NCBI GenBank assembly: GCA_018401695.1 | Contig: JAGYKD010000001.1 | Span: 1,116,016-1,180,015, forward strand | DNA length: 64,000 bases | Origin: Flavobacteriales bacterium | Lineage (GTDB): Bacteria > Bacteroidota > Bacteroidia > CAIKAF01 | Direction of reading: 5' to 3' | In this document: one piece after another, positions 21,823-62,364 of the stretch | Position numbering within the stretch: the stretch's first letter is position 1 | Layout: each line of letters starts with the position of its first letter | Translations under genes and position numbers: made by a program | Notes under the pieces: generated by a model | The model's database searches: none | What the model was told of the DNA's origin: nothing | What the model saw: the letters and a program-made list of their open reading frames with translations, nothing else

Positions 21823-23166
21823 ATGCAAAAGCTTTTCTACACGGCATTCATTTTATTCAGCTTGCTTAAGCCCGTAAGCGCCCAGGGAGTTACCATTGGT
21901 GCAAATACCCCTCCCGATGCCTCTGCCGTGCTCGACCTTCAGGATACCACGCGCGGCTTTTTGCTGCCCAGGCTCAACACTGCCCAAAGAAACGCCATAG
22001 CCCAACCGGCAGACGGCCTACAGATTTACAATACCACCGACCATTGCGTGCAGATTCACCTTCCTCAGTCGGGTTGGCGCGATTTGTTGTGCGATTGCAA
22101 CAGTTTTCCCAACGCGCAGTTCAGCTACCCCTCCACCTTGCTGAGTGGAAGCCCCATAACCTTTACTCCGGCGAGCTCCGGCTTGTTTTACAGCTGGAGT
22201 TTTCAGGGAGGAACACCGGCCAGCAGCACCGCAGAGCAACCTTCGGTAACTTTTGCCCAAGGCGGCTCTTTTACCGTTAACTTAACCGTGACCGATCAGC
22301 TTGGCTGTTCGGCCTCTTTTGCAGATACCGTCCAAGTAATCAATTGCGTTACTGGAGGCTCGGTCACCCTCAATACTTGCGGAAATACGGGTAGAACCGG
22401 GCCCAGTCAAAGCCAATGCAATGCTCAATATGGTACCGGTGTGGTATCGGTAAATAATGGGTACCAAACTTGGACCGTTCCCAATGGCGTGTGCTCCTTA
22501 ACGGTTGAAGCCTGGGGCGCTCAAGGAGGAACCAGCAGCACAAACAATGTAGCCGGTGGGCTTGGCGGTTATGTCAAGGGGGATTTTGCCGTGCAGGGCG
22601 GCAATCAACTAGTCATATTGGTTGGTCAACGCGGAGAGTCCGGTAATGGAGGCGGCAACTGGTGGGCCGCCGGAGGTGGCGGAGCCACGGTAGTTGCCTT
22701 CGGAACCAATCCTGCCAGTGCTACGCCTTGGATGGTTGCCGGCGGCGGTGGCGGTGCCGGTAGAAACAGCGGAGAAGTGGGCGGCGCCGGTGGTGCAACC
22801 CTGAGCTTGGGAGGAAATGGAAATGCGGGCACCGGTTCTGGAAACGGTGGAAGCGCCGGCTCAGGATACCACAGCAGTGCAGGAAACGGTTCGGAATCTT
22901 TCGTCAACGGAGGTGCCGGTGCCAACAACAACAGCTATTGCAGTACCTGTGGCATTGGTGGTTTTGGCGGCGGCGGTGCCGGCGGAGGAAATCCCGGCGG
23001 CGGCGGTGGCGGTTATGTAGGCGGCAATTACGGCGCCAACTCCAGCCAGCCAGGAAGCTCTTATAATCGTGGTGGCATGGGCGGAACAAGCTACAATACC
23101 GGCAGCAACCCAAGCAACCAAGCCGGACAACGCATAGGAACCGGTCAAGTAGTGATAACATGGTAA
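21823..23166 (+). CDS. secreted multidomain protein: conserved N-terminal domain + PKD-like domain + long glycine-rich (ALK/Gly_rich-like) C-terminal region ending in GQVVITW
   Basis: Start re-set to ATG 21823 (MQKLFYTAFILFSLLKPVSAQ signal). The PKD-like repeat follows (…SWSFQGGTPASS…FTVNLTVTDQLGC). Then comes …QTWTVPNGVCSLTVEAWGAQGG… and about 250 aa of G/N/S-rich sequence. This protein is paralogous to 59416-61002. Confidence 0.7.
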   Translation: MQKLFYTAFILFSLLKPVSAQGVTIGANTPPDASAVLDLQDTTRGFLLPRLNTAQRNAIAQPADGLQIYNTTDHCVQIHLPQSGWRDLLCDCNSFPNAQFSYPSTLLSGSPITFTPASSGLFYSWSFQGGTPASSTAEQPSVTFAQGGSFTVNLTVTDQLGCSASFADTVQVINCVTGGSVTLNTCGNTGRTGPSQSQCNAQYGTGVVSVNNGYQTWTVPNGVCSLTVEAWGAQGGTSSTNNVAGGLGGYVKGDFAVQGGNQLVILVGQRGESGNGGGNWWAAGGGGATVVAFGTNPASATPWMVAGGGGGAGRNSGEVGGAGGATLSLGGNGNAGTGSGNGGSAGSGYHSSAGNGSESFVNGGAGANNNSYCSTCGIGGFGGGGAGGGNPGGGGGGYVGGNYGANSSQPGSSYNRGGMGGTSYNTGSNPSNQAGQRIGTGQVVITW

Positions 23167-27344: not shown

Positions 27345-27492
27345 CCCCCCGGGGCAAAGGGAGGCTCCTGCACAGGGCGGCTGTAGGGACTGTTGGGCGA
27401 GGAAGCGACCGCAGGAAGCTACCGCAGGCCTACAGCCCCTAAGCTGCCCAAAGCAGAGCCGGAACAAGTCCCGGATAGGATACTTGAACTTC
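27345..27492 (+). repeat. copy of an about 150-bp GC-rich dispersed repeat family (head CCCCCGG.CAAGGGAGG… tail …GCCGGAACAAG.CCGGATAGGATAC)
   Basis: Shares both termini with the copies at 42036-42190 (reverse), 42961-43100 and 55801-55935. Confidence 0.6.
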
Positions 27493-42035: not shown

Positions 42036-42190
42036 AGGAAGTTTTAGTATTTTATCCGGCACTTGTTCCGGCCAGCCTTGGCTCCGGTGCTTGGGGGCGG
42101 GTTCCGGGTTCCGAGCTAAGGCTCGGAATCCTCACCCTGCCCCCAACAACCCCTTTGCCTGCGGCGGGTCCTCCCTTGGTGCCGGGGGCC
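42036..42190 (-). repeat. GC-rich dispersed repeat, reverse-orientation copy
   Basis: The reverse complement reads …CCCCCGGCACCAAGGGAGGACCCGCCGCAGG……GGCTGGCCGGAACAAGTGCCGGATAAAATACTAAAACTTC, matching both the head and tail of the family. Confidence 0.6.
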
Positions 42191-42960: not shown

Positions 42961-43100
42961 GCCCCCGGCCGGGTGGATGCCCGGCGGCTGCGGCCTGCGC
43001 CAAGGGCGGGCCGAGGAGGCGGACCTTTGGGGAGCCACCGCAGGCCCTTGCCCTTGGCAGCAGGGGGCCGCCGAAGGCAGGAACCGGGGCCGGATAGAAT
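42961..43100 (+). repeat. GC-rich dispersed repeat, forward copy
   Basis: …GCCGAGGAGGCGGACC…GCCACCGCAGGCCC……GGCCGGATAGAATAC. It sits between the cat-like start and the pepP start. The track ORF 42973-44469 wrongly reads through it. Confidence 0.6.
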
Positions 43101-43176
43101 ACCGGCACTACCCATGGGCGAGGCCCCGCTTCTTCATTCCCTCTTTTTATTGGTAGTTTTGCAAAAACCGAAGGTT

Positions 43177-55281: not shown

Positions 55282-55524
55282 ACAAGGTTATGTGTTCTCC
55301 GATGGACCGGCTAATGGGTCCTAAGCTATCTGAGACCGAAAGGGAAGAAATCCGTGAAAAAAGGAAATGGGTGGAGGCGCAAGAGTTTTTGCGGAGCATG
55401 ATCATGACTTCGCAGTGGGTGTCGGGAGGAGCGGCACACTTGGAACGATCCGCATTCAGGAAACAATTCAGGCTGGATGGCCGAAGGGAAATCATACTCT
55501 AAGTTAAGGATTTCTACCGGAATA

Positions 55525-55612
55525 TGGCTAGGTGGTGGGGTTGGCTTTTGGCAGGGTTGGCTTTTGGCTTTTGGCAGGGTTGGCTTTTGGCTAGGTTGGC
55601 TTTTGGCTGGGG
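55525..55612. repeat. tandem GGTTGGCTTTTGGCA-type repeats (reverse-complement relatives of the GCCAAAAGCCAAC heptamer family at 24181-24852)
   Basis: GGTTGGCTTTTGGCAGGGTTGGCTTTTGGCTTTTGGCAGGGTTGGCTTTTGGCTAGGTTGGCTTTTGGC. Confidence 0.75.
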
Positions 55613-55618
55613 TTCGAG

Positions 55619-55697
55619 AAACGTTTACAAGCGTTTAATAAACGGTTTTGGCTTTGAAAAATGCGAAATTTGTCGTGTGGGTGGGCACGGAGTGCTG
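55619..55697 (+). repeat. about 80-bp direct repeat, copy 1 (TTTACAAGCGTTTAATAAACGG…GTGGGCACGGAG)
   Basis: About 80% identical to copy 2 at 56009-56087. Confidence 0.7.
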
Positions 55698-55800
55698 CAC
55701 AGGATAAAAAACCAGATGAATTCTATTTTTTGGAGAGAAACCAGCCGTAAAACTCCAAAAGAACAGCTCCATAGATGCGAAAAACCCCAATATAAAGCCT

Positions 55801-55935
55801 CCCGGCCCCAAGGGAGGACCCGCCGCAGCCGCTGCTTTGGTTTGGGGAGGCCGAGGAGGCGACCAAAGGAAGCCACCGCAGGCCCCCCAAACCAAGAAGG
55901 GGCAAGGCTGGCCGGAACAAGGGCCGGATAGAGTA
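55801..55935 (+). repeat. GC-rich dispersed repeat, forward copy
   Basis: CCCGGCCCCAAGGGAGGACCCGCCGCAGC…GCCGAGGAGGCGACCAAAGGAAGCCACCGCAGGCC…GGCTGGCCGGAACAAGGGCCGGATAGAGTAC, lying between the two 80-bp direct repeats. Confidence 0.6.
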
Positions 55936-56008
55936 CAAGATGCAGCTACGGAGGAAAGGCCCGAAAGAGGACGAAGGAGAAGGCATGGCTTTTGTCGCCG
56001 GCTTCGGT

Positions 56009-56087
56009 AAACCTTTACAAGCATTTAATAAACGACTTTGCTTTTGAAATTTCCGAAATTTGCCCTAGGGGTGGGCACGGAGGGCTA
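56009..56087 (+). repeat. about 80-bp direct repeat, copy 2
   Basis: CCTTTACAAGCATTTAATAAACGACTTTGCTTTTGAAATTTCCGAAATTTGCCCTAGGGGTGGGCACGGAGGGCT. Confidence 0.7.
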
Positions 56088-56184
56088 AAAAGTATAGAGG
56101 GCATTCTCGAACCCTTTACACACCTTTTTAGACACTACTGTTGTTCTGCTTAGGCTAACTACCACACCTGCCCCTTTTTGAGGT

Positions 56185-56712
56185 TTAGTCTTCCTTTTTA
56201 ATTTTAAATCCAATGGGAGTTCTTGGGGTTTCTTGATCTTTCACAAACTGCTTCAGGTAATTGAAAATCAGTTCAATTTTCTCGTCTTGTTTACCTACCC
56301 TTTTCCGCATACTTTCTACTTCAAGAAGCAATTCCTTATGCGTCAAAAGCATTTCTCGCATTTTGGTAAACACCCTGATAATTTGAATATTCACTTGGAT
56401 GGCAACGCCACTATTTAAAACACTTGATAACATGGCAACACCTTGTTCTGTAAAGACAAAAGGCAAAGTTCTTCGACCTCCCCATCTTGAGGTCACATTT
56501 TGTGACTTCAAGTCTCCCCATTGTTCGGCTGTCAACCGAAACATAAAGTCATCAGGAAACCTTTCTATATTTCTTTTTACTGCTTGGTTTAAAACTTTTG
56601 TCTCTACTTGATAAAGCTCTGCTAAGTCACTGTCTAACATAACTTTTATTTCATTTATTATGTAAATTTTACTCATTAATACCTCTTCAGGAATGGAAAC
56701 CTTTTTACTCAT
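56185..56712 (-). CDS. ORF6N-domain protein (KilA-N-related; mobile-element/phage-associated DNA-binding family)
   Basis: …KVMLDSDLAELYQVETKVLNQAVKRNIERFPDDFMFRLT…TSRWGGRRTLPFVFTEQGVAMLSSVL…; start is probably MSKIYIINE at 56676. Confidence 0.8.
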   Translation of the reverse strand: MSKKVSIPEEVLMSKIYIINEIKVMLDSDLAELYQVETKVLNQAVKRNIERFPDDFMFRLTAEQWGDLKSQNVTSRWGGRRTLPFVFTEQGVAMLSSVLNSGVAIQVNIQIIRVFTKMREMLLTHKELLLEVESMRKRVGKQDEKIELIFNYLKQFVKDQETPRTPIGFKIKKED

Positions 56713-57389
56713 ATTTGTTCCTAAAATTGATTTGGAAAAACTAAGCTCGCTCGGTTTAGGTGTCGCCGCTGCTATTCATAAAACGGAAAACAATGGACTC
56801 ATTTACTTATGAAGGTCTTGCTTGAAATTTATTAAGCAATTTTCCGGTGAACAAAGCTATGGACAGCCGAGGCGAAATCACACCCTAAGTTAAGCACTTC
56901 TACCAAATATAGAAATAGGGGATAGGTTTTTTGGCCCTCGCCCATATCAAATGTGTGCTCCGTGGCCGGCCCTTGCTCCAGGCTCTCTTGCACCAAAGCT
57001 AGCCGCCCTAAGGCTGTGGTGGTTCCGCAAAGCTCCACCTCCTCGCCCAAGGGCGGCTAGCTTGGTGCATCAAGCGGCCTTTTGCTGGGCCTTGGGGCGG
57101 TTTTTTTGAAGTTGATTAATTTTAGGGGAGCTGTTTCTTTGTTTGCTCATAAACGAAATGTAAGCTTTTGGATTTAATTGCCCGGTTTTGGCCGGCCACT
57201 ACAGTGCCATAACTCAAACAAGATGAAAAGATCCTTAAGCATGGCAGGATGTCTAAAGGCCAACAAAGTAAGCTTGGCGCAAATTTGCGGACGGATTAAA
57301 TGGCCGGTTTCAAAAAAAAAAATTCGGATAATGCTTTGTAGGATATGGCCGGGCTGCTATATTTGCACTCCTGAAAATCAGGAATGTCT

Positions 57390-57463
57390 TCCTCGGTAGC
57401 TCAGTTGGTTAGAGCATCTGACTGTTAATCAGAGGGTCGCTGGTTCGAGCCCAGCCCGAGGAG
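57390..57463 (+). tRNA. tRNA-Asn (anticodon GTT)
   Basis: Cloverleaf by eye: acceptor TCCTCGG/CCGAGGA, D-arm GCTC…GAGC, anticodon stem TCTGA/TCAGA with loop CTGTTAA, T-arm GCTGG-TTCGAGC-CCAGC, discriminator G. CCA is not encoded. Confidence 0.95.
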
Positions 57464-57508
57464 CTTCAAAATCAAAGGCTTACAGCGTTTTCGTTGTAGG
57501 CCTTTTTT
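57418..57508 (+). repeat. direct repeat copy 1: 3' 46 nt of tRNA-Asn plus about 45 bp downstream (attL-like)
   Basis: Near-identical (1 indel) to 59296-59385. Confidence 0.9.
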
Positions 57509-57541
57509 TATTTGCGCATAATTTGCGCATGAGGGTTGCTC

Positions 57542-57868
57542 TTAGTTGCTCTGTGTGGTTCCTTGGTACCGGTCGCCTCCGGGGTTGTGTACTTGAAAAA
57601 CTACTTCCGCCGGCCATGTCTGCGTAGATGTGTTGTCGCTTTCGGCTGCCGGCGGTGGCGTTACTAAGGCCAATAGCTTCACCATGATTTCAAGGTAGGC
57701 TTTGGGGTTTGTTTTTGCCAAGGTGTTTAGGCTTGCCTCCATTTTTTCGCCTTGCCCCTGCAAAGCTTGGCCGATTAACTTCCGGGCTTGCTCTGTAATC
57801 TTATTGGGGATTCCTTTACGGCTGCCACGTTTACCTGCTTTGGATCCGGTGTCGAAGTTGTATTGCAC
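57542..57868 (-). CDS. hypothetical small protein with a basic N-terminus (…KAGKRGSRKGIPNK…), possibly phage/mobile-element derived
   Basis: 108 aa inside the remnant element; KRGxxKG-type basic patch. Confidence 0.35.
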   Translation of the reverse strand: MQYNFDTGSKAGKRGSRKGIPNKITEQARKLIGQALQGQGEKMEASLNTLAKTNPKAYLEIMVKLLALVTPPPAAESDNTSTQTWPAEVVFQVHNPGGDRYQGTTQSN

Positions 57869-58184
57869 TTTCCGTTACTTTGGTTTTTGTGATGGTGTAC
57901 GATGGGTGCGAATTACTGTTTCAAAATGCTGCATCCATTTTTACCTGTTACATTTTTACTCCCCCCTATAAATAGGGGGGGAGGTAAATAAAAATCGGCT
58001 TTTAGGAAAAATTTTTAGGTAAAAGCCCTGAAAATCAGCACCTTTTTAATTGGTGGCAAGCGTATCTAAAAATGCACCAATACCAGCAAAAACCTTGTAA
58101 CACTTTGTTTGTCAATGACTTTTAAATAAATTTTACCTGCTTAAAAATGTAAAAATCCTTGATTATCAATAGGTTAAAAACTGC

Positions 58185-58622
58185 TTAAAAGCGGTATGAA
58201 AGGCCGATGCCGTTGTCTGAACTTAGCTGCAAACCTGCTTTTTTGATGTTATGAGCCCCGGAAATGAAAAATACCAAACCCGTAAGCCATACGGCACCGC
58301 CGGCGCCTATAATTAAAGGTATTTGACTGCCGCCTTTACCGCTATCTGCAAAACTTGCAGCTGCGGCGATTCCCGGGCCCGCTACCATAATCAAAGTACC
58401 TGCTAACATTTGATTGCCGCCTTTGGTAAGCAATTTTGCCGCCTCTTGAAAACGGGGAGGCTCTATTACAGGCTGCTGCATTACCAATGATTGCGGATTA
58501 TTACTTTCGGGCTGTTGGCAATAGCTGGCTATGCCGCAAGTAAGAAGTAAGACGGTAAGGAATGTACTTTTCATTTTAGAAATTTCTTTAAAAGTAGAAA
58601 AATCAAAAGTAGGAGATTTCAC
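58185..58622 (-). CDS. hypothetical secreted/membrane-anchored protein
   Basis: Probable start is MKSTFLTVLLLTCGIASYCQQ (signal peptide), with Gly/Ala-rich hydrophobic stretches near the C-terminus. Confidence 0.4.
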   Translation of the reverse strand: MKSPTFDFSTFKEISKMKSTFLTVLLLTCGIASYCQQPESNNPQSLVMQQPVIEPPRFQEAAKLLTKGGNQMLAGTLIMVAGPGIAAAASFADSGKGGSQIPLIIGAGGAVWLTGLVFFISGAHNIKKAGLQLSSDNGIGLSYRF

Positions 58623-58635
58623 AAAACGGCATGAT

Positions 58636-58902
58636 TCAACAGGCTACCGGCAACCATGTGGTACCGGCTAGCGTATAGATACCCATTCGCTGCATAGTAT
58701 TTAAAGCTTCAAGCTGCTTATTGCCTCCGATGGTTTGCCCATGTGCGGCCTCATAAGCTTCTCTAATGGCTTGTTTTGCCTTTGCCTTGGTATTTACACC
58801 TTGCCTTGGTAGATGTGGCAAAATAGCCCTTAATGCGCCTTCGCTTAGGTCAATTTTTCGCCCGGAACGTTCGGCCTCGGATACGATGGGCACGCCGTCC
58901 AT
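58636..58902 (-). CDS. hypothetical protein (88 aa)
   Basis: ORF only; no recognisable motif. Confidence 0.25.
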   Translation of the reverse strand: MDGVPIVSEAERSGRKIDLSEGALRAILPHLPRQGVNTKAKAKQAIREAYEAAHGQTIGGNKQLEALNTMQRMGIYTLAGTTWLPVAC

Positions 58903-58926
58903 TCCCCAAGTTAATTAACGACCTAC

Positions 58927-59150
58927 TCCCGTGGAGTGCAGAAATGAATACCCACATTGTTTGTGTTTTGCACCAAAACAAAGGAAACGAACATTTGCGT
59001 GGCCATCTTGGAACCGAGGCCACCATCAAAGCCGAAACCGTTTTGAGCCTAAAGAAGGAGGGCGAAGGAAGTTTGGCAAGTTGTGTGAAAGCCCAGAACC
59101 GGGAATTTTCACCGCTGTTCTTACAAAATAGGTCTTTTTGCTCATTTTAG
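58927..59150 (+). pseudogene. possible C-terminal fragment of a RepA/DnaB-like AAA helicase-primase (gene remnant)
   Basis: …IVCVLHQNKGNEHLRGHLGTEATIKAETVLSLKKEGEG… resembles the HHxxK…RGSSAL…D.V..L segment of AAA_25/RepA-like helicases. No upstream part is present. Confidence 0.25.
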
Positions 59151-59295
59151 CGGGGTTAGAAATTTGCGCATAATTTGTGCAAGAGAGTACGAAAAAGAGG
59201 AAAAAAGAGAAAAGAAATGAAAAAGAAAATGACCCCTTATGTATTGATTTACAACAAAAAGGGTGTTTTTGAAATAAGAAAAAAGGGAATTCCCT

Positions 59296-59385
59296 CTGAT
59301 GTTAATCAGAGGGTCGCTGGTTCGAGCCCAGCCCGAGGAGCTTCAAAATCAAAGGCTTACAGCGTTTTCGTTGTAGGCCTTTTTT
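59296..59385 (+). repeat. direct repeat copy 2: partial tRNA-Asn 3' half plus downstream sequence (attR-like)
   Basis: CTGATGTTAATCAGAGGGTCGCTGGTTCGAGCCCAGCCCGAGGAGCTTCAAAATCAAAGGCTTACAGCGTTTTCGTTGTAGGCCTTTTTT. Confidence 0.9.
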
Positions 59386-59415
59386 CTATCCCTCCATTTG
59401 TATTAATTTCACCCT

Positions 59416-61002
59416 ATGCGTTTTCTGTTCCCTACCCTTACGGCGTTTTTCATTTTTTCTGTTGGCCTATCCGCTCAATCCGTTGGCATCAACACCCAAA
59501 CGCCGGACCCCTCGGCCGCACTCGATGTGCATAGCACCCAAGGGGGCTTGCTGGTGCCGCGCATGACGGCCGCTCAAAGAAACAGCATCAATCAATCCGC
59601 CGACGGCCTACTGATTTTTAATACCACGTCCGGCTGCCTTGAAATTTTTTTCCAAACCATCGGTTGGCGAAGCATAGAATGCAATTGCCAACAAGCGCCG
59701 GCCATGCCCTCCGCCATTCAGGGGCCAAATTTGGTGTGTCCGGGTCAACAAGGACTGGTGTATTCTGTGCCCGCCGTGCCCGGCGCCTCTCAATACCAAT
59801 GGACGGTGCCGCAAGGGAGTCAGATTGTAGCGGGTCAGGGTACCGATACCATAACCGTACTTTCGGGCAACAACTCCGGAAGCATTAGCGTATTCGCTTC
59901 CAACAGCTGTGGACAAAGCGCTACGCAAAATTTCAATCTAACCGTGCAGGTACCTGATGCTTCTTTTTTTACTACTCCTTCCAGTCCGGCCATAAATTCC
60001 AATGTGCAATTCACTTCCGCCACTTCAGGGGCAAACAGCTACAGTTGGACCTTTCAAAATGGAACGCCGGCCAGCTCTATTCAAGCAAACCCTACGGTGC
60101 AATGGAGCCAAACAGGCACCTATACCGTTACTCATATCGTTTCGTTTGGAACCGGTTGCGCCGATACTACTACCCAGCAAATAACGCTTACCAATTGCCA
60201 ACCGGGAAGTCAGACCTTTAATTATACAGGACAAATAGCCACGTGGACGGTTCCTCCCTGTGCCGCAAATGCTACGATAACCGCTTATGGAGCTTCCGGG
60301 GGCGACCGTGCACAGAATTATTCCGGGGGCTTTCAGGCCGGGGGAAATGGCGCCCGCATTACCGGAGACTTTGTCTTGACTCCCGGCCAAACGCTTTCCA
60401 TATTGGTGGGAGGTGAAGGAAGTACCGGTTTCAGTGGTTCCAACGGCTCCAATGGCTCCGGGGGCGGCGGAAGTTTTGTTTGGGTCAATGGTTCCAATAA
60501 TTTATTGGTGGCTGCAGCCGGTGGTGGTGGAGCTGCCGATACGCCCGGCGGGAACGGTTCGGCGAGCAGCAGTCCCAGCAGCGGCGGGGGATCGGGAAGC
60601 GGCGCACCCGGCGTCAATGGAAACGGCGGCGGCGGCGGAAGTCAATCCGGCTCACCCGGCAATCCGGGCACCGGCGGTGGCGGTTGCGGCTGGCTTAGCA
60701 ACGGCAGCAACGGCCAGGTATTTTCGCAAGGTGGAGGTGGTCAACGCCCCTTGGCAGGCGGTGCCGGTGGTCAGGCAGGGAACGATGGCGCTGCCGGAGG
60801 TTTTGGTGGCGGCGGCGGAAGTGCAGGACACCGCGGTGCCGGTGGCGGCGGTGGCGGTTACAATGGCGGTCCCGGAGGCAACGGTTGGAGCGGCAGCTCT
60901 TGGGGCTCCGGCGGTGGTGGAGGTTCTTTCAATGGAGGTGCCAATCAAATCAACCAGTCCGGGGTGCAAAACGGGCATGGGCAGGTGGTGATTACGTGGT
61001 AG
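59416..61002 (+). CDS. secreted multidomain protein, paralog of 21823-23166: conserved N-terminal domain + two PKD/Ig-like repeats + glycine-rich (ALK/Gly_rich-like) region ending GQVVITW
   Basis: Signal MRFLFPTLTAFFIFSVGLSAQ, then …VGINTQTPDPSAALDVHSTQGGLLVPRMTAAQRNSINQSADGLLIFNTTSGC…, two PKD-like repeats, …QTFNYTGQIATWTVPPCAANATITAYGASGG…, and a long Gly-rich tail. Confidence 0.7.
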   Translation: MRFLFPTLTAFFIFSVGLSAQSVGINTQTPDPSAALDVHSTQGGLLVPRMTAAQRNSINQSADGLLIFNTTSGCLEIFFQTIGWRSIECNCQQAPAMPSAIQGPNLVCPGQQGLVYSVPAVPGASQYQWTVPQGSQIVAGQGTDTITVLSGNNSGSISVFASNSCGQSATQNFNLTVQVPDASFFTTPSSPAINSNVQFTSATSGANSYSWTFQNGTPASSIQANPTVQWSQTGTYTVTHIVSFGTGCADTTTQQITLTNCQPGSQTFNYTGQIATWTVPPCAANATITAYGASGGDRAQNYSGGFQAGGNGARITGDFVLTPGQTLSILVGGEGSTGFSGSNGSNGSGGGGSFVWVNGSNNLLVAAAGGGGAADTPGGNGSASSSPSSGGGSGSGAPGVNGNGGGGGSQSGSPGNPGTGGGGCGWLSNGSNGQVFSQGGGGQRPLAGGAGGQAGNDGAAGGFGGGGGSAGHRGAGGGGGGYNGGPGGNGWSGSSWGSGGGGGSFNGGANQINQSGVQNGHGQVVITW

Positions 61003-61026: not shown

Positions 61027-62364
61027 TTATTCCGTTTCTTCTTCCGGCGGTTCTTCCATGGCGCCTAACAAGCGTTGGGCTTGCTCTTCGGGCAGTTCGG
61101 TAACGCCTCTCAATTTGGAAAGCATCATCCGGGTGCGGGTGCCTACCAGTTTGTCGATTTCGTTGTTGGCCTCGCTGATTTTCTTTTGGGCTTTGCCCAG
61201 GACGTCTCCAAAGCGTTGGAATTCGGTTTTTACGGCGCCCAAAATTTCCCACACCTCGCTGCTGCGTTTTTGAAGGGCCAGGGTTCGGAATCCCATTTGC
61301 AGGCTATTCAAAATGGCCGCCAGGGTAGTTGGTCCGGTAACAATGATTTTAAACTCCCGTTGCAGTTGGGCAATCAAATCGGGTTGACGCACAATTTCGG
61401 CAAACAAACCTTCGGTGGGCAGAAACATGATGCCAAAATCGGTGGTGTGCGGCGGCTCCAGGTATTTGTCGCGAATGTCTCGGGCAAATTTTTTCACCGA
61501 TTGGCTCAGGGCGCGCTGGGCGGCATCAATAGCCACTAAGTCGCCGGCATCGTAAGCGCTTTGCAGGCGTAGGTAGTCTTCTTGGGGGAATTTGGCATCG
61601 ATGGGCAAATAGACAGGGCTGTCGTCTTCTTGCCTGCCGGGGAGTTTTATGGCAAACTCTACGGATTCGCTGCTGCTTTTTCGGGTGCGTACGTTGGTGT
61701 CGTATTGCTCTGGGGCCAACACCTGTTCGAGCAGGTTGCCCAGTTGGATTTCGCCTAAAACGCCGCGGGTTTTTACGTTGCTCAGCACCTTTTTGAGGTC
61801 GCCCACGCCGGTGGCCAGGTTTTGCATTTCGCCGAGGCCTTTTTGGACTGCTTCCAGGCGCTCGCTGACCAATTTAAAGGACTGGCCTAAGCGTTCCTCC
61901 AGCGTTTTGTGGAGTTTTTCGTCAACGGTTTCCCGCATTTTTTCGAGTTTTTGCTCGGTAGTTTGCACCAATTCTTGTTGGCGGAGCGACATTTGGTCGA
62001 ATTTTTGTTTTTGGAGTTCATTGAATTCCCGCACGCTGTCCGAAAAGCGTTTTCCAAAGGCGTCGAGTGCGCGCGAAAGTTCTTCGCGGTTGTCTTTGTT
62101 GCCTTTTTCTAAGCCTTCGCGCATGGCGCTTAAGCGCAGCTCCAGTTGTTCGCCCAAGCGGTTAAGCCCCTGCGCCAGCTCTTCTCGATTGTCCTTTAAG
62201 GATTGGGACAATTCGCTGCGGTGTTCGCGCATGCTTTGTTCTATGTAAGGCCGCAGCTTTTCGACCGGATCTTGCTGCGCTTTTTCTGAATGCTTATGTT
62301 TAAAAATTAGGTAAATCAGCAGCAGCAAGGTCATTGCCTGTGCCACCATCCAAAGAATTTCCAT
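61027..62364 (-). CDS. rmuC: DNA recombination protein RmuC
   Basis: N-terminal TM, long coiled-coil, and a C-terminal RmuC nuclease-like domain (…FGIMFLPTEGLFAEI…). Confidence 0.85.
   Translation of the reverse strand: MEILWMVAQAMTLLLLIYLIFKHKHSEKAQQDPVEKLRPYIEQSMREHRSELSQSLKDNREELAQGLNRLGEQLELRLSAMREGLEKGNKDNREELSRALDAFGKRFSDSVREFNELQKQKFDQMSLRQQELVQTTEQKLEKMRETVDEKLHKTLEERLGQSFKLVSERLEAVQKGLGEMQNLATGVGDLKKVLSNVKTRGVLGEIQLGNLLEQVLAPEQYDTNVRTRKSSSESVEFAIKLPGRQEDDSPVYLPIDAKFPQEDYLRLQSAYDAGDLVAIDAAQRALSQSVKKFARDIRDKYLEPPHTTDFGIMFLPTEGLFAEIVRQPDLIAQLQREFKIIVTGPTTLAAILNSLQMGFRTLALQKRSSEVWEILGAVKTEFQRFGDVLGKAQKKISEANNEIDKLVGTRTRMMLSKLRGVTELPEEQAQRLLGAMEEPPEEETE

Follow-up and report, generated by a model that had tools for sequence, protein, structure and literature searches.

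Islands that integrate into a tRNA gene split it and restore it themselves, and are bounded by the rebuilt gene on one side and the displaced fragment on the other (PMC4383910). Integrative and conjugative elements (ICEs) or integrative and mobilizable elements (IMEs) which decayed while keeping both attachment sites, attL and attR, form an accepted category, the cis-mobilizable elements (CIMEs; PMC5704250). The locus described here lies in a 64,000-nt stretch of contig JAGYKD010000001.1 from a Flavobacteriales bacterium (the window, with position 1 as its first letter). It is a 1,877-bp segment next to a tRNA-Asn gene which is very probably the decayed, integrase-less remnant (the relic) of a small element once integrated at this tRNA. 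Like a tRNA island, it has an intact tRNA at one boundary, a repeat of the displaced 3' fragment at the other and an empty counterpart site in a relative; of the integrase gene that such an island carries inside, nine codons remain.

The sole tRNA within the 64-kb window, tRNA-Asn(GTT), was called at 57390-57464 (+ strand) by ARAGORN and Rfam (RF00005; 71.3 bits, the gathering score being 29). The gene is intact, has the same sequence as its counterpart at the empty site described below, and represents the regenerated target at attL. A repeat search returned an exact 86-nt direct repeat (57423-57508 = 59300-59385, spacing 1877), consisting of the last 42 nt of tRNA-Asn and a 44-nt terminator hairpin; an exact 86-mer repeat in 64 kb cannot be due to chance. 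In alignments the full block of identity reaches back to tRNA position 28, in the 5' strand of the anticodon stem (TCTGA), and covers tRNA positions 28-75 (48 nt) and 44 nt downstream. It measures 92 nt at attL (57417-57508, +) and 91 nt at attR (59295-59385, +), the right-hand copy carrying a single 1-nt deletion, the C at anticodon loop position 33 (TCTGA-TGTTAA). An original prediction, made from the letters alone, had reported the tRNA 3' part and about 45 bp beyond it as duplicated; this holds, except that the tRNA part is 48 nt rather than 46 nt long. The 44 nt downstream of the tRNA part, termed T in the following, form a 14-bp hairpin followed by a T-run, and both copies score as terminator-like on the + strand. 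The left copy occupies 57465-57508, with the hairpin itself at 57474-57505 and the T-run after it; the right copy (59342-59385) follows the displaced tRNA-Asn 3' fragment at 59295-59341. The chromosomal flank then leads into a Gly-rich gene with PKD_6 and PKD domains (Pfam; flank and gene 59386-61002, +), whose ATG at 59416 lies exactly 30 nt past the end of the repeat. The insertion accounts for this tRNA fragment 30 nt upstream of the Gly-rich gene.

Species-representative genomes (185k) were scanned with a 20-mer from T. Matches were mostly chance occurrences in proteobacteria; the useful loci, and the only ones within Bacteroidota, were L015 and L014. L015 is contig JAUHWY010000012.1 of the Bacteroidia metagenome-assembled genome JAUHWY01. 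Window positions 57238-57509 align with L015 2575-2306 at 91.5% identity and positions 59295-61002 with L015 2398-689 at 88%, the match being extended at 81% by 61040-61554. The overlap between the first two of these alignments is one copy of tRNA-Asn and T (tRNA at L015 2425-2351, T at 2350-2306), and the order in L015 is contiguous: tRNA-Asn, T, a 30-nt flank beginning CTATCCCTCC and a 528-aa Gly-rich PKD gene. As there is one copy of tRNA-Asn and T with a contiguous flank in L015, the 1,877-bp segment of the window must be an insertion, and the L015 locus is, as judged from the alignment, the empty site relative to it. The prediction had placed the tRNA directly upstream of the Gly-rich gene in former times and had suggested a search for an empty tRNA-Asn site in a related genome; L015 supplied both. 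Its further suggestion of an integration hotspot in related genomes stays a conjecture: L015, the one related genome found, is empty at this site, and the scans described below brought up no other Asn-specific element.

That the repeats are attL and attR of an element with a tyrosine integrase targeting the tRNA 3' part had also been proposed, and is borne out both by the empty site and by relatives of the segment. An open reading frame (ORF) of 108 aa inside it has homologs (P0006-P0009; 96-102 aa, 73-90% identical) whose contigs reveal a family of small elements. Metagenome contigs L007, L019/L021 and L003 assemble as circles of 3.9-4.8 kb: a terminal overlap of 30 nt (equal to k-1 of the assembler) in L007 gives a 3916-bp unit, an exact terminal overlap of 123 nt in L003 gives a 4770-bp unit, and L021 bridges the contig ends of L019. 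The circular assemblies are consistent with excised forms, tandem copies being an alternative. In L007 a gene for a 102-aa protein resembling the 108-aa one is followed, after a gap of 190 nt, by a 447-aa integrase (Phage_int_SAM_5, PF13102, and Phage_integrase, PF00589), an HTH_17 gene, a 116-aa winged-helix-like gene and a 316-aa gene. L019 has the same gene order with a 414-aa integrase, which shows an additional weak match to Arm-DNA-bind_5. Tyrosine integrases of the relatives range from 414 to 447 aa and, together with an excisionase-like HTH_17 gene, adjoin the attP described below.

The relationship to the segment is clearest at its ends. Window positions 59120-59384 align with L007 700-435 and positions 57468-57927 with L007 474-17; these matches are adjacent and overlapping. 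The two ends of the relic are joined in L007 around one copy of the core, beside the 447-aa integrase and then the HTH_17 gene, and the arrangement is the same in L019, L021 and L020. The junction of ends around a tRNA-like core in L007, L019 and L021 is an attP. In window orientation it reads: integrase start (- strand), two 11-nt units (ATTTGCGCATA and ATTTGCGCATG), an A-rich spacer of about 110 nt, the tRNA-like core beginning at the anticodon stem, T, both units again and the 102-aa gene (-). The core corresponds to tRNA-Asn(GTT) in the window, to tRNA-Arg(ACG) in L007 and to tRNA-Met(CAT) in L019, L020 and L021. Integrated copies exist for the latter two types: the Arg core of L007 matches L018, a relative integrated beside a complete tRNA-Arg(ACG), and the Met core matches L014, an attL at a complete tRNA-Met(CAT). 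All three tRNAs have a CTGA/TCAG anticodon stem in common and identity always begins there, from position 28 in the Asn and Met cases alike. Given this start of identity, the crossover is most likely located in the anticodon loop.

The relic has retained the arms of such an attP. The P' arm (57510-57532, +) contains the two direct 11-nt units ATTTGCGCATA and ATTTGCGCATG, candidate arm-type integrase sites, and the same pair occupies the same position in the attP or attL of L007, L019, L021 and L018. In the P arm (59162-59184, +), found by repeat search and alignment, one direct unit is intact (ATTTGCGCATA) and the other, ATTTGTGCAAG, has two substitutions. An A-rich spacer (59185-59294, +) connects these sites with the core; its identity to the spacers in the attP of L007, L019 and L021 is about 80%. 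Every variant of the family shows a doubled short repeat on both arms, flanking the core, with three types of repeat: ATTTGCGCATN (11 nt, twice per arm) in the window, L007, L018, L019 and L021; TTGCCATAT-type in L020 and L014; and TTTGTAGACACA in L003-L006. The integrases of L020 and L019, which have the Met core in common and differ in their arm repeats, are about 93% identical past residue 160 and about 35-40% identical over the N-terminal 155 aa. Those of L019 and L007, with the same arm repeats and different cores (Met and Arg), are 87% identical throughout. The arm repeats hence covary with the integrase N-terminal domain, as arm-type binding by this domain predicts, and we regard the paired 11-nt repeats as putative arm-type sites. 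Repeats on both sides of the core, matched to the integrase N-terminus as in a heterobivalent system, were found with all three repeat types.

The interior of the segment is only mildly AT-rich (GC 0.438, 0.478 for the window), less so than the prediction had implied. No integrase, excisionase or relaxase was found among its ORFs with Pfam, PHROG, NCBIfam and tblastn, none of them scored above cut-off in Pfam, PHROGs or NCBIfam, and tblastn with three family integrases detected no other integrase homolog in the window; the lack of an integrase ORF had been correctly predicted. Remains of the integrase gene are nevertheless present as a start codon and eight further codons (MSKKTYFVR; 59145-59119, -), which match the integrase starts of L019 (MSKKIYFVS) and L007. 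Nucleotide homology to L007 and L019 ends at about 59120.

On the opposite strand, a piece of a replicative helicase of the AAA_25 family occupies 58923-59117 (+). This fragment of about 65 aa is truncated at both ends and was identified by tblastn against P0001-P0005 (52-60% identity). A helicase profile search returned 2770 relatives; those of full length have 360-800 aa, with the matched part in their C-terminal half. AAA_25 was present in all six relatives scanned with Pfam, two of which also have a Prim-Pol or BT4734-like domain at the N-terminus. The helicase resemblance had been recognised in the prediction as a C-terminal fragment; it is an internal one. Helicase homology ends at 59117, and its 3' break adjoins the integrase stub within 2-3 nt. 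By this close abutment of two incomplete genes, the junction is taken to mark a deletion scar, and the proposal that the relic arose by deletion holds good.

Next to the P' arm lies the 108-aa gene (57542-57868, -), a conserved element gene with the basic N-terminus KRGSRKG; its homologs P0006-P0009 always adjoin the P' arm. The ratio of nonsynonymous to synonymous substitution rates is 0.125 against L018 and 0.185 against L003, and the gene looks intact and under purifying selection within the family. The prediction had rightly noticed this ORF by its N-terminus; it is an intact family gene rather than debris of a degraded element. An AF2 (AlphaFold2) model has a mean predicted local distance difference test (pLDDT) score of 65, with a core of three helices at residues 23-69 (pLDDT 76-95). 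The protein matches PHROG 11043 (function unknown) weakly and has no Pfam, NCBIfam or PDB sequence match; its model found no significant match in BFVD (best E=0.02, uncharacterised phage proteins). Window positions 57585-58288 match L018 with 88.7% identity, so the adjoining non-coding spacer and the 145-aa ORF beyond it are element cargo in at least one other variant.

This spacer (57869-58184) is AT-rich and element-derived. It is about 89% conserved with L018 and contains a perfect palindrome, CCCCCCTAT-AA-ATAGGGGGG (57961-57980), with several short repeats of the TTTTAC type alongside; the palindrome may act as terminator, origin or operator. The 145-aa ORF (58185-58622, -), with a probable start at 58574 giving 129 aa, has a signal peptide and a Gly-rich hydrophobic segment. 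It was called as 129 aa in an independent unitig (L017, see below), and its C-terminal 57 aa are homologous to an ORF at the contig end of L018, upstream of the 96-aa gene of that relative. For the 88-aa orphan ORF that follows (58636-58902, -), the sole database match is the identical protein of the source genome. Neither this ORF nor the spacer resembles the HTH, 116-aa, 316-aa or 317-aa proteins of the relatives, and a role as their counterparts was rejected.

Combining these observations, the following history is proposed. The parent element, probably of about 4 kb or somewhat larger, would have encoded a heterobivalent tyrosine integrase. Its attP would have carried a mimic of tRNA-Asn that began in the 5' strand of the anticodon stem and ran to the 3' end, with a terminator hairpin of the element's own behind it. 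The chromosomal tRNA-Asn gene would have been split by recombination with this site, most likely through a crossover in the anticodon loop; a functional tRNA was rebuilt at attL with the element-borne 3' part, and the chromosome's 3' part would have moved to attR beside the Gly-rich gene. Later, two or more deletions inside the element, whose number and order are reconstructed from the surviving ends, would have removed nearly all of the integrase, both ends of the AAA_25 helicase gene and presumably the excisionase. One of them, from the helicase interior to codon 10 of the convergent integrase gene, would yield the junction between stub and helicase, and a second break lies near 58903-58922. 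What survives are nine integrase codons, the 108-aa gene beside P', a small secreted or membrane ORF and the orphan ORF. Lacking a recombinase, and with 1 nt missing from the attR core and one P-arm unit altered by two substitutions, the relic has most likely become immobile.

The strongest competing explanation sees in the segment a passenger that is still mobile, a functional CIME or satellite-like unit without integrase, moved in trans by the Int and Xis of a visiting relative. That CIMEs are an accepted category (PMC5704250) counts in its favour. The core, the T hairpin and arm repeats are kept at both att sites, the 86-nt repeats are 100% identical, and the gene beside P' is intact with its signs of purifying selection. 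The damage to attR speaks against it: the deleted nucleotide of the core is in the anticodon loop, the presumed overlap region, and one P-arm unit has two substitutions, which makes mobilisation in trans less likely. Furthermore, the interior shows scars rather than design, with a nine-codon stub joined directly to a helicase cut at both ends; neither the metagenome and viral scans nor the window yielded an Asn-specific integrase, and no second copy or circular form of the 1.8-kb unit was seen. We therefore consider a mobile passenger unlikely.

Even less probable is an assembly artefact, in which a free 1.88-kb circle with 86 nt of chromosomal identity was threaded into the tRNA locus. The Logan unitig L017 (run SRR14300309), from an independent k=31 assembly of raw reads, equals window 57479-59329 with 100% identity, that is, the interior and 30 nt of each repeat; this graph shape fits the integrated and the episomal state alike. 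However, the relic contains no replication or recombination gene to maintain an episome, the sequence immediately left of the repeat is not the same at attR as at attL, as expected of a real junction of P arm and core, and ordinary 150-nt reads and large assembly k-mers span an 86-nt repeat. That the 3' region of the tRNA was duplicated locally in tandem around unrelated chromosomal DNA, without any mobile element, would suit the perfect identity of the direct repeats and an interior with an orphan ORF and a small membrane ORF lacking family assignment, but this explanation has next to no chance of being correct, refuted as it is by the precise empty site in L015, by the homology of the interior ends to both attP arms of integrase-bearing circles, and by the integrase start codon with its eight further codons.

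Several observations weigh against the relic being the plain remnant of one such integration. The comparison with an unoccupied locus relies on one related genome, L015. No intact Asn-specific relative, be it an attP or an integrated copy with integrase, turned up in the metagenome and viral collections scanned. The 4-kb relatives are without the AAA_25 helicase, the 88-aa ORF and the 145-aa ORF, save the partial one in L018; therefore, either the true parent differed from all variants seen here or the interior has a mosaic make-up. Finally, T also follows the tRNA-Asn at the empty site of L015 and is found on the chromosomal side of attR, which a simple integration model does not predict. For the 86-nt repeats to be 100% identical, two private variants included, gene conversion or a local origin of attP is needed.

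The distribution of T is indeed puzzling. It accompanies the core in every attP or attL (L007, L014, L018-L021), regardless of whether this mimics tRNA-Asn, -Arg or -Met, and from this constancy across cores it looks element-borne. Two variants (CTTCAAAA and GTAGGCC) are common to both copies in the window and occur neither in L015 nor in any other element. Possible explanations are that gene conversion acted between the 86-nt repeats, that the family left an older footprint at the locus, or that the tRNA-Asn locus of this lineage was the evolutionary source of T. A more far-reaching reading, which we put forward tentatively and hold to be less likely than its negation, makes the relic the sole Asn-specific representative known so far of a hitherto undescribed family of integrative circles of about 4 kb. 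Near-identical integrases would be retargeted among tRNA-Asn, -Arg(ACG) and -Met(CAT) by swapping only the tRNA-mimic core of attP, with the arms and the element-borne terminator constant, and the chromosomal terminator behind tRNA-Asn, even that in L015, would be a footprint or the source of the family. If so, the tRNA-Asn locus would have been visited repeatedly.

Searches for further members covered several collections. A metagenome scan for the junction of Asn core and T gave 0 matches, as did scans of viral contigs (IMG/VR) with the arm-repeat pattern and the 108-aa protein family, which yielded no relative of the element. Against phage and plasmid collections, the relic DNA and the 108-aa protein produced the tRNA as the only match, and the parent family of mini integrative circles with swappable tRNA-mimic cores found no match there. 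No relaxase or oriT was recognisable in the relatives, and their 316-aa and 317-aa proteins had no match in Pfam, NCBIfam, PHROG or PDB sequences.

Within the family, L003-L006 stand apart by a distinct 432-aa integrase and an extra 317-aa gene. Their module of 119-, 316- and 102-aa genes has 95-97% DNA identity with L007, whereas the integration modules of L003 and L007 are unrelated: the integrases are 22% identical, and the attP cores, arm repeats and HTH_17 genes differ. This looks like a recent exchange of the entire int/attP cassette. The attP core of L003 (3340-3525), located between TTTGTAGACACA arm repeats, is unlike a tRNA 3' half, and ARAGORN called no tRNA there.

On the 5' side of the tRNA, similarity to L015 reaches past the tRNA promoter region only as far as 57238, and beyond this point none was found at the DNA or protein level. 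The ORF6N (KilA-N-like) gene that the prediction had located 5' of the tRNA is there (56185-56712, -; Pfam E=9e-36), in a low-GC patch (56000-57237; 0.37, 0.478 for the window) with near-identical unitigs in two read sets (L001, 100%; L002, 99.3%). Judging from its composition and the end of similarity, this DNA to the left of the tRNA may have been rearranged, or acquired in a second event unrelated to the first. Direct repeats surround the ORF6N gene (97 nt, 78% identity, 55610/56000; 45 nt, 82% identity, 55474/56860), the stretches 55474-55706, 56000-56096 and 56860-56904 being arranged in an order unlike a simple duplication. An imperfect palindrome of about 80 nt (56989-57069, 75% self-complementary) between ORF6N and the tRNA matched no Rfam family. 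A G+C-rich sequence of about 90-140 nt recurs on both strands with 71-74% identity (55801-55936, 42047-42186, 27395-27478, 43009-43102) and may be a dispersed repeat resembling repetitive extragenic palindromes (REPs) or miniature inverted-repeat transposable elements (MITEs). On the other side, the Gly-rich PKD protein (59416-61002), which begins 30 bp past attR as had been predicted, is the second of two paralogs, the other being encoded at about 21823-22728 (33-36% identity). An exact-match look-up of the 108-aa and the 528-aa Gly-rich proteins returned no record.

For annotation, the segment is best described as a mobile-element remnant and not as host genes, with little consequence for the genome itself. 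Its wider value is in the relatives, whose compact, modular int/attP pairs form a natural series for studying, or borrowing, the retargeting of tyrosine integrases; this modular family of circles of about 4 kb, in which tRNA-mimic cores and arm modules can be swapped, is of moderate interest, though it lies outside the window.

Among described elements, the Bacteroides mobilizable elements NBU1 and NBU2 (IntN1; PMC5704250) resemble the family in a Bacteroidota host, an integrase with Phage_int_SAM_5 and Phage_integrase domains, a tRNA 3' target and a small HTH_17-like helper. Replication genes of the AAA_25 or primase type are typical neighbours, another shared trait. NBU1 is about 10 kb in size, and the relatives are less than half as large, with no Mob relaxase or oriT identified; the plasmid collection gave no match at the DNA or protein level. 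Membership among NBU-type IMEs was rejected, since neither the relic nor the relatives have a relaxase (MobP-type) or oriT match. A prophage or phage satellite was likewise rejected, there being no PHROG structural match and no match in the phage collection or IMG/VR.

The attP differs from that of lambda in having two units per arm instead of P1, P2 and P'1-3, with hosts and sequences unrelated. In common with the lambda type are paired repeats on both arms, here covarying with the integrase N-terminus, and an excisionase-like HTH gene in intact relatives. The spacing in the element is about 110 nt from the P-arm repeats to the core, the P' repeats following directly after the hairpin. With Islander-type tRNA islands (PMC4383910) the relic shares the regenerated tRNA, the displaced 3' repeat, the start of identity at the anticodon stem and the empty site; it differs in being only 1.8 kb long, in the loss of the integrase gene and in a repeat that runs 44 nt past the tRNA through an attP-borne terminator hairpin.

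Descent of the relic from an integrase-bearing element is shown, and an ICE or IME as parent is a conjecture. The parents seen here, 3.9-4.8 kb circles without a recognisable relaxase or conjugation gene, and the slightly damaged attR set the relic apart from a typical CIME. Like a CIME, it lost its integration genes by deletion from a larger element and kept its att sites: attL and attR persist, with core, T and arm repeats at both ends, and integration and transfer genes are gone. By definition it is a CIME-like decayed element, and as a tRNA-island scar it is an ordinary finding, of a sort that is common and well understood.

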